From positions 1 through 6,714 of the IMG/VR virus record IMGVR_UViG_2693429557_000009: a stretch of 6,714 nt of DNA; one strand, written 5' to 3'. The translations under genes were made by a program, and so were the position numbers. The notes under the pieces are model-generated. The model was not told the origin of the DNA. It did no database searches and saw only the letters and a program-made list of their open reading frames with translations. Below are positions 2,041 to 2,180 of this stretch, piece by piece (position 1 is the first letter of the stretch; each line of letters begins with the position of its first letter). This DNA is from a virus. Lineage: Duplodnaviria; Heunggongvirae; Uroviricota; Caudoviricetes.

Positions 2041-2057
2041 ATTTGTGGTAAATGGGC

Positions 2058-2088
2058 GGCTGGTGGGTGTTAGGGGCACCCACCAGCC
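2058..2088. repeat. Perfect 12 bp inverted repeat (ggctggtgggtg / cacccaccagcc) with 7 nt spacer, no downstream T tract
   Basis: Read directly from the sequence; lies between the small ORF terminator and the methyltransferase start; candidate operator or RNA structure. Confidence 0.5.
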
Positions 2089-2129
2089 ATCTGCTCATGC
2101 GTTGGGTTCACAAGCAAACCTCAGGCCCA

Positions 2130-2148
2130 CTGCTTTGCGCAAAAGCAG
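2130..2148. promoter_or_regulatory. Near-palindrome ctgcTTTGCGCAAAAgcag (perfect 10 bp core TTTGCGCAAA) about 35 bp upstream of the methyltransferase ATG; candidate operator
   Basis: Dyad symmetry read directly; typical size and position for a dimeric regulator binding site. Function is inference. Confidence 0.3.
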
Positions 2149-2180
2149 AATGAGCCTATCAGAGACAGGCTTAATGATCC

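Follow-up and report, generated by a model that had tools for sequence, protein, structure and literature searches.

A conserved RNA leader predicted to control a DNA methyltransferase gene in the late operon of lambdoid prophages

The late operon and the element before the methyltransferase gene

The DNA studied here, positions 1 to 6,714 of the IMG/VR virus record IMGVR_UViG_2693429557_000009 (from now on the window, meaning this whole stretch of 6,714 nucleotides, nt), is the start of a lambdoid late operon (Table 1). Between a small open reading frame (ORF) and the gene of a DNA methyltransferase (MTase) lies a segment of 140 nt, which an initial annotation made from the letters alone had singled out for two elements of dyad symmetry. 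We found that positions 2045-2180 form one conserved element, a structured leader of ~135 nt in plus-strand RNA, and that the two dyads are two of its stems.

M.EcoGII-type enzymes, to which the MTase of the window is related, methylate essentially every adenine and are common as tools; we know of no explanation so far for how prophages silence and then deploy them. The window enzyme shows the beta-class motif order DPPY...FxGxG (DPPY at residues 35-38, FFMGLG near residue 309) and is 95% identical to the enzyme of phage 1720a-02, which has been named very similar to M.EcoGII (PMC5778455). M.EcoGII itself is a non-specific adenine methylase that is unexpressed in the lysogen and harmful to the cell when expressed constitutively (PMC5778455). 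On this kinship the window MTase belongs to the M.EcoGII family, and a non-specific activity is predicted for it.

The perfect 12-nt inverted repeat reported for the segment is real (GGCTGGTGGGTG / CACCCACCAGCC, with a 7-nt spacer). At 2058-2088, it is the only one in the window once perfect arms of 12 nt or more and loops of 3-20 nt are required, and 300 dinucleotide-preserving shuffles contained such repeats at a mean of 0.01. The near-palindrome CTGCTTTGCGCAAAAGCAG is likewise present at 2130-2148, with 7+7 nt around GCGCA. A promoter scan, whose coverage was limited to sigma70 promoters, called no site in 2041-2180, in agreement with the initial annotation, and its view of the first dyad as lacking a T tract and not being a classical terminator held as well: directly 3' of the stem stands ATCTGCTC, and the terminator scan was silent there. 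Not mentioned before were an intrinsic terminator with its hairpin at 2017-2034, a lower stem of 6 base pairs (bp) beneath the first dyad, a long-range helix (2105-2115 with 2169-2180) that encloses the second dyad and abuts the ATG, and a Chi octamer in the left arm of the first dyad.

The window RNA folds into two hairpins, HP1 and HP2, with a minimum free energy (MFE) of -64.2 kcal/mol and z = -3.85, and RNAalifold run on 40 sequences returned the same helices as the window MFE fold; on the gapped covariance-model alignment, alifold gave poor and uninformative consensus energies for HP2 on both strands. Nine of the 12 bp in the upper stem of HP1 are G-C, a GC-rich stem-loop of the sort that intrinsic terminators have. 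The 3' strand of the basal helix of HP2 occupies positions -12 to -1 before the MTase AUG, where there is no Shine-Dalgarno sequence. Upstream of HP1, the GTGRAAAT box may form an alternative lower stem with a TTCGC/ATCTGC segment located 3' of HP1, and a GGTGAA/TTCACC pairing was seen by eye in the Xenorhabdus and Photorhabdus versions.

In the window MFE fold, the start codon region AUGC (2181-2184) additionally pairs with GCGU (2099-2102) just 3' of HP1, and the Klebsiella/Salmonella clade has UUUCA there, a complement of the UGAAA in AUGAAA. This extra sequestration of the AUG is lineage-specific and not kept overall. Two other readings of the box and its surroundings were rejected: GCUGUGAAAAUGGGC as a lambda nut boxB-like element, the stem of which does not pair, and TGTGAAAAT as a sigma70 promoter, including an extended -10 version, for which the scan was negative and the box variants GTGGTAAAT, GTGGAAAT and GGTGAAAT lose the key -11 A.

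Table 1 Features of the window in order of position
Feature	Position	Strand	Content and basis
RusA	419-793		
Q antiterminator	790-1611		PF03589
Terminator tR' in the PR'/tR' region	1689-1708, then T run		Terminator scan
Small ORF, 65 amino acids (aa)	1833-2030		TrmB-type winged-helix match, weak (E 0.0026, under the Pfam cut-off)
Intrinsic terminator	2017-2044 (hairpin 2017-2034)	+	Stem GCCTTC/GAAGGC, loop CGCAGT, tail TTTTTTATTT; terminator scan
Conserved GTGRAAAT box	2045-2053	+	GTGGTAAAT here, TGTGAAAAT in most relatives; between terminator tail and HP1; alignments
HP1, whole	2052-2098	+	Very stable 18-bp stem with 3' bulge
HP1 lower stem, 5' strand	2052-2057	+	AUGGGC (DNA ATGGGC); RNAalifold, window MFE fold
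HP1 upper stem, 5' arm (first dyad, left arm)	2058-2069	+	GGCUGGUGGGUG; inverted-repeat search, RNAalifold, pair statistics
Chi octamer	2059-2066	+ (late-transcription, top strand)	5'-GCTGGTGG-3'; exact match
HP1 upper stem, 3' arm	2077-2088	+	CACCCACCAGCC; inverted-repeat search
HP1 bulge and lower stem, 3' strand	2089-2098	+	4-nt bulge AUCU, then GCUCAU (DNA GCTCAT, 2093-2098); RNAalifold, MFE fold
HP2, whole	2105-2180	+	76-nt interrupted hairpin, four helices
HP2 helix P2a	2105-2110 with 2175-2180	+	GGUUCA with UGAUCC; consensus 5' strand GGUCA/GAUCA
HP2 helix P2b	2112-2115 with 2169-2172	+	AAGC with GCUU
HP2 helix P3a	2124-2129 with 2151-2156	+	GGCCCA with UGAGCC; conserved C·A mismatch
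HP2 helix P3b (second dyad)	2130-2136 with 2142-2148	+	CUGCUUU with AAAGCAG, around GCGCA
Conserved unpaired segment	2157-2168	+	UAUCAGAGACAG, consensus CUAYCAGAG; 3' side of the large internal loop in HP2
MTase gene, candidate target of control	2181-3239	+	352-aa beta-class N6-adenine DNA MTase, M.EcoGII/M.EcoGI family; PF01555 (N6/N4 MTase), E 7.9e-42
tRNA trio	3280-3529		CAT-anticodon tRNA (RefSeq: tRNA-Ile, ileZ type), Arg-TCG, Arg-TCT
Small RNA (sRNA) STnc100	3606-3815	+	Full-length Rfam match, 148.8 bits, E 4.6e-34; just 3' of the tRNA trio
ORF	5964-6257		By position matches the class II holin gene annotated in TOE17, a near-identical prophage

Conservation and pairing across phages

By BLAST, the region was found in 70 phage records, and 3137 of 5426 complete Escherichia coli genomes matched window positions 1600-2300. 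An alignment of 11 phages (of E. coli, Shigella, Klebsiella, Citrobacter and Morganella) left AATGGGCGGCTGGTGGgTGTT and several other blocks invariant, even where the flanking genes are only ~70% identical. Since an earlier, larger set had been gathered with a search pattern containing the Chi-bearing invariant block and was biased in that respect, two sets were built independently, one through the MTase protein (80 loci, one genome per species) and the other through the pattern of HP2. In the MTase-anchored set, the mean identity to the window was 78.9% for the 140-nt leader versus 71.9% for the MTase coding sequence, and the leader was the better conserved of the two in 43 of 44 loci. The range of conservation extends from Stx-type prophages of E. 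coli to phages of Morganella, Providencia and Aeromonas. A conserved small or upstream ORF over the interval (for example, ORF 2006-2188) was considered and discarded, as 1-nt indels between clades break the frame and no Pfam match was obtained.

A covariance model built on the structure yielded 52 distinct copies of full length, and in each case the gene directly downstream was a homologous MTase gene or a com-like gene preceding one. Standard pairs filled 89.6% of the cells in the alignment of these copies, versus 31-42% when the 3' partners were slid by 1-3 columns, and 22 pairs had changed on both sides versus 7.4±1.8 in column shuffles (the observed number was reached in 0 of 500), counts that come from a model-fitted alignment of related sequences with few independent changes and are therefore supportive rather than a formal test. 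Helix 1, at the lower stem of HP1, was paired in 97.9% of cells.

Individual copies illustrate how the stems are maintained. In the Aeromonas phage phiARM81ld, HP1 has the lower stem CGUGGC/GCCACG and the top CCCUG/CAGGG and is fully compensated, and the HP1 arms of Providencia prophages (GACUGUAAAGGUG/CACCCUUACAGUC) are compensated as well. The P2 helix is rebuilt from different letters in Morganellaceae, and the Aeromonas version of it is likewise compensated. P3b occurs as CUGC/GCAG, CUGC/GCGG and CCGC/GCGG (locus L061 among them), and the C·A mismatch of P3a is replaced by U-A at locus L137. The unpaired segment on the 3' side of HP2 retains its YUAWCA core in Morganellaceae and Aeromonas.

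The two arms of HP1 do not vary alike. The G/U-rich 5' arm is near-invariant, and the C/A-rich 3' arm drifts through transitions (C to U, A to G) and through bulges of one base whose position varies, reading CACCTGCCAGCC, CACTCACCAGCC or CACCC[G/A/T]RCCAGCC in relatives; 86 G·U cells stand against 15 A·C cells. Drift of the 3' arm with retention of G·U pairs argues for an RNA (or single strand) of plus polarity, and it destroys the dyad in the DNA, which argues against a DNA operator. HP1 was also stabler on the plus than on the minus strand in 48 of the 52 sequences (z = -5.2 on the plus and -4.4 on the minus strand).

The terminator ahead of the element overlaps the stop codon of the small ORF and ends just 5' of the leader. 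Its stem covaries across phages, one of the pairs being UA in 22 sequences and CG in 17. Every leader copy inspected has an intrinsic terminator, with hairpin and U-rich tail, immediately 5' of it, even where the upstream gene differs; equivalents precede the element in Kosakonia (L138), in Trabulsiella (L135) and in the Aeromonas phage.

Three readings of the dyads had been offered by the initial annotation: operators for the adjacent winged-helix protein, methylation-sensitive regulatory sites, and an RNA structure controlling read-through. Only the third finds support, and not in all its parts. Pairing, covariation and G·U bias identify the dyads as stems of a conserved, folded plus-strand RNA; control of read-through is less favoured: the first hairpin has no U tract, and by its anatomy the leader would rather act on the translation start. 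For sites of methylation, or targets of the MTase itself, we obtained no support. A comparison of the repeats with the MTase target motif would be largely moot, as no specific motif is expected of an enzyme from the non-specific M.EcoGII family, and the conserved GATC before the ATG is accounted for by base pairing.

In Rfam 15 at E<=1, the only match touching 2041-2180 was P26 on the minus strand (24.2 bits versus a gathering threshold of 36, E 0.1), and there was no match to an S-adenosylmethionine (SAM) or S-adenosylhomocysteine riboswitch, a leader or an sRNA family in that interval. The main text of a paper on prophage sRNAs of enterohaemorrhagic E. coli (PMC4104026), searched by terms and without its supplements, yielded no RNA at this position. 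The leader family appears to be undescribed and is probably a new family of cis-regulatory RNA, which if confirmed would merit an entry in Rfam; the kind of element, a structured mRNA leader by which a start site in the late operon of a phage is sequestered, is well known.

Candidate functions of the leader

We lean, by a modest degree, towards reading 2045-2180 as a cis-acting structured leader of the late, PR'- and Q-dependent transcript that would occlude the translation start of the MTase. In the basal helix of HP2, an anti-Shine-Dalgarno-like GGUCA(C)...AAGC pairs with GCUU...UGAUCY, the 12-13 nt abutting the AUG, and this would limit the access of ribosomes to an mRNA that has no canonical Shine-Dalgarno sequence. 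The conserved UGAUC (-6 to -2) is complementary to GAUCA in the 3' end of 16S ribosomal RNA (…GAUCACCUCCUUA), in a register that would fit a Shine-Dalgarno extension. GGUCA(C), which is GAUCAC in some copies, resembles the GAUCAC at that same ribosomal 3' end and could therefore act as an anti-Shine-Dalgarno mimic. Added to the transcriptional brakes (tR', the 2017-2034 terminator and the dependence on Q), the HP2 brake would hold the MTase off in the lysogen and, once the prophage is induced, restrict or postpone it. HP1 would be accessory, and could serve as a second, weak terminator, a processing site, a stability hairpin or an insulator for the folding of HP2; a role as processing site or stability hairpin is equally possible as one as terminator. 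The Chi octamer in its 5' arm would be a passenger at the DNA level, not what holds the hairpin, and probably useful to a Chi-rich class of phages. The leader offers a concrete, testable candidate control element for M.EcoGII-type enzymes.

This organization resembles the com-mom system of phage Mu, in which a late DNA-modification gene that is harmful when mis-expressed has its translation start locked in an mRNA stem-loop, the translation inhibition structure (TIS; PMC6483171). In the window, too, a leader stem-loop is predicted to sequester the start region of a modification gene (2169-2180). The differences are considerable: the window has no com, as ORF 2006-2188 has no Pfam match and the small ORF no zinc ribbon; the element stays conserved where the small ORF is missing; the product is an N6-adenine MTase and not Mom; and the leader, at ~135 nt and with two hairpins, shares no sequence with the mom TIS. 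We know of no activator acting on the window leader. A link between the two systems is suggested by Aeromonas phage phiARM81ld (locus L211, 1150-1500), where a terminator, the homologous leader, a Com-like gene, a hairpin and the MTase follow one another. The AUG of the Com-like zinc-ribbon gene (PF10122, E 1.6e-6), which precedes the MTase, lies inside the basal helix of the leader, and the hairpin CUCCGAGUGCCAACUCGGAG covers the GGAG of the MTase. By analogy, this can be read as a com-mom-like cassette set on an M.EcoGII-family MTase, which would tie the locus to translational control of the Mu mom type. Among the loci examined, only this Aeromonas relative carries a Com-like gene.

Several points weigh against occlusion of the MTase start, beside the limit on the pair counts given above. 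What speaks for occlusion is the anatomy of the leader, from which it is predicted. The Aeromonas leader precedes com and not the MTase directly. Xenorhabdus and Photorhabdus relatives keep HP1 and have a much shorter HP2, some of them with a GAGG Shine-Dalgarno sequence of the ordinary kind. Given its composition, HP2 has no more than moderate stability, and beside the conserved C·A mismatch several of its positions pair poorly. The strong conservation of the GTGRAAAT box, of AACC and of CUAYCAGAG suggests a binding partner that has no place in the mechanism outlined above. In the Photorhabdus and Xenorhabdus loci (L173-L210), the element stands ~100 nt upstream of the MTase start, HP1 is often followed by a U tract, HP2 consists of one small hairpin, and some copies use a different start codon.

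A tentative alternative, which we regard as possible and short of probable, is that the DNA octamer GCTGGTGG is the conserved feature, as a Chi site that shields phage DNA, during replication or packaging, from RecBCD coming in at the cos right end and stimulates recombination, and that the hairpin is incidental to it. Chi is active when RecBCD, entering from the right end at cos, meets its 3' side, which places active sites on the top strand of the standard lambda map (PMC12315714). The octamer of the element has this orientation: in the records of SfV, mEp460 and LLS, all of which begin at the terminase genes, it is a top-strand site at a distance of 3.0-3.6 kb from the right end. Element-bearing genomes also have an excess of top- over bottom-strand sites (17/5 in SfV, 16/4 in mEp460, 12/5 in phiP27 and 20/3 in LLS), which amounts to 3-7-fold in SfV, mEp460 and LLS and fits the phage class described as having no Rec module and high Chi, of which LLS is the type example (PMC12315714). 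The window holds four top-strand and two bottom-strand sites in 6.7 kb. Furthermore, Chi is kept in 38 of 44 MTase-anchored and 44 of 54 HP2-anchored distinct copies, and mosaic breakpoints cluster at HP1, in Stx2k-type phages, in a junction to STnc100 directly after GGCTGGTGGGTGT, and at upstream modules of the Flotzy/LLS type. This clustering fits either a conserved linker sequence or Chi-stimulated exchange.

The octamer is, however, missing from 6 of 44 and 10 of 54 distinct copies (14-19%), and these retain the hairpin by compensatory changes: Chi-less variants of the E. coli type keep the stem through C7-G, A7-U or A9-U, as the Providencia arm does with its own letters, and Chi is absent from the fully compensated Aeromonas copy. 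ATGGGCG and GTGTT, which flank the octamer, are equally invariant, the invariance of the 5' arm is already predicted by a G/U-rich RNA arm, and HP2 and the lower stem remain unexplained by Chi. Compared with Chi sites of phages in general (PMC12315714), the window octamer is thus an exact top-strand site near the right end, and it differs in being embedded in a conserved RNA stem that persists when the octamer is lost, so the dyad is not explained by Chi. As sole cause of the conservation Chi was rejected, being frequent yet dispensable in both anchored sets; a secondary, DNA-level use of the G-rich RNA arm is probable. The leader would then be a non-coding segment under two constraints at once, RNA pairing and a DNA recombination signal, and it marks a recurrent junction of lambdoid mosaic modules.

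A reverse-complement Chi occurs in the 3' arm of HP1 (2080-2087) in this lineage only. Within the MTase coding sequence, CCACCAGCTGGTGG at 2873-2886 is a perfect 14-bp palindrome composed of two back-to-back Chi sites (bottom strand at 2873, top strand at 2879), and positions 344 and 1744 carry further top-strand sites. Some prophages have the small ORF and the first half of HP1 fused straight to the STnc100 region and lack the MTase and tRNA genes. Trabulsiella odontotermitis has, at 500-601 of its locus, a second and decayed copy of GTGAAGATGGGC...HP1 right after another terminator, ~840 nt upstream of the intact leader, which suggests that the junction was duplicated when 'morons' entered between tR' and the leader.

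Less likely still, and in our view doubtful, is that HP1 acts as the second or third terminator of the late leader, stopping RNA polymerase that Q has not modified and so controlling read-through into the MTase and the late genes. The GC-rich and very stable stem, its position in a PR' leader downstream of Q that already holds tR' and the 2017-2034 terminator, the A-rich box upstream that mirrors a U-rich tail, and the UUUU(A/C/G) that follows the homologous hairpin in many Xenorhabdus copies would all suit the terminators that Q-modified polymerase reads through. Unlike these, HP1 in the window and in Enterobacteriaceae is flanked on its 3' side by AUCUGCUC or AUUCGCUC (AUCUGCUCAU in the window), without a U tract, and this flank is itself paired in the lower stem; HP1 was not called by the terminator scan, a real terminator stands 24 nt upstream of it, and HP2 is not terminator-like.

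We give a similarly low probability to processing, in which RNase III or another nuclease would cleave HP1, HP2 or both and so free the MTase and late mRNA of the terminated leader, with an effect on how stable this mRNA is or a switching-on of its translation. In the lambda N leader and in T7 signals of the R1.1 type, long, irregular helices with asymmetric internal loops lie just 5' of a gene start and affect translation or stability. The helices of the window, which we take to resemble such known RNase III substrates (the lambda N leader and T7 early mRNAs), are likewise long, irregular and just 5' of a phage gene start: HP1 is an 18-bp helix with a 4-nt bulge on the 3' side, HP2 a long irregular helix ending at the AUG, and the stem geometry, including the position of the bulge, is conserved. 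Against this, the uninterrupted helices fall short of two full turns, there is no sequence similarity to the known signals, and the operon position differs, the window element being a late leader after tR'.

A bolder extension of translational control, in which the leader is not a passive damper but a regulated RNA switch of a new class, seems to us rather improbable when all its parts are taken together. In it, GGUCAC and the near-identical GGCCCAC could compete for GUGAGCC, so that the leader alternates between an ON fold and an OFF fold in which UGAUC-AUG is sequestered. A factor of the phage or the host, or else a SAM-cycle metabolite, would be bound by the invariant loops (CUAYCAGAG, AACC and the GTGRAAAT box), the switch would set the moment after induction at which progeny DNA undergoes a burst of non-specific adenine 'hypermethylation', and HP1 would double as a Chi site and a recombination linker for the exchange of late-operon modules.

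The operator reading, with the dyads bound by the 65-aa winged-helix protein or another repressor at an MTase promoter, we consider highly improbable. It draws on the dyad symmetry, on the weak TrmB-like match of the adjacent small ORF (E 0.0026, below the Pfam cut-off) and on a likeness to the C-protein/C-box operators of restriction-modification systems, where a small helix-turn-helix gene also lies beside an MTase gene with dyads upstream. In the window, by contrast, the scan of 2041-2180 found no promoter-like site, the two dyads have no sequence in common, dyad symmetry is not kept in the DNA, with G·U-type changes and bulges confined to one arm, and the MTase is an orphan of predicted non-specific activity in a late operon. 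Moreover, 13 of 44 loci keep the full element with no homologue of the small ORF within ~1.3 kb upstream; in Kosakonia the element directly follows Q and its terminator tR', and in Kluyvera (L160) an unrelated 299-aa gene. This persistence without the small ORF speaks against an operator of the small ORF protein.

Hardly any weight falls on an antisense RNA, transcribed from near the MTase start codon and pairing with the leader, in which the structure would work on the minus strand: HP2 has the lower raw folding energy on that strand in 47 of 52 sequences, the conserved C·A mismatches become G·U there, and the window has a minus-strand terminator-like site at 2171-2153, but the energy advantage disappears on correction for composition (z about -2.4 on the minus versus -2.6 on the plus strand), HP1 clearly favours the plus strand, no minus-strand promoter was called in the scan, and the terminator-like hairpin is not conserved in the other clade. 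A minus-strand structure of HP2 was rejected on these z-scores as an effect of composition, and it is chiefly the linkage to HP1 and to the start codon that assigns HP2 to its strand.

Flanking features of the late operon

The likely PR' lies within 1615-1720 (TTGATT, 16 nt, TAAATT), where it was recognized by eye and not called by the promoter scan; together, PR' and tR' would yield a short RNA resembling StxS or 6S. In phages with different Q alleles, homology resumes exactly at tR', with BLAST alignments beginning at window position 1689, and a direct repeat (GGGCGTTTTATGCCTGA / GGGTTTTTTATGACTGA) is present at 1654/1704.

Downstream of the MTase, the tRNA trio is arranged as it is ahead of stx in Stx phages, but in the window STnc100 and a gene for a SASA (NanS-p-like) esterase come next and toxin genes are absent. 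On the minus strand of 3816-3904, a terminator-like hairpin (3844-3823) and a weak OmrA-B-like match (25.2 bits, E 0.17) converge on STnc100, an arrangement that resembles the 'convergent sRNA genes' downstream of PR' reported in the prophage sRNA paper (PMC4104026).

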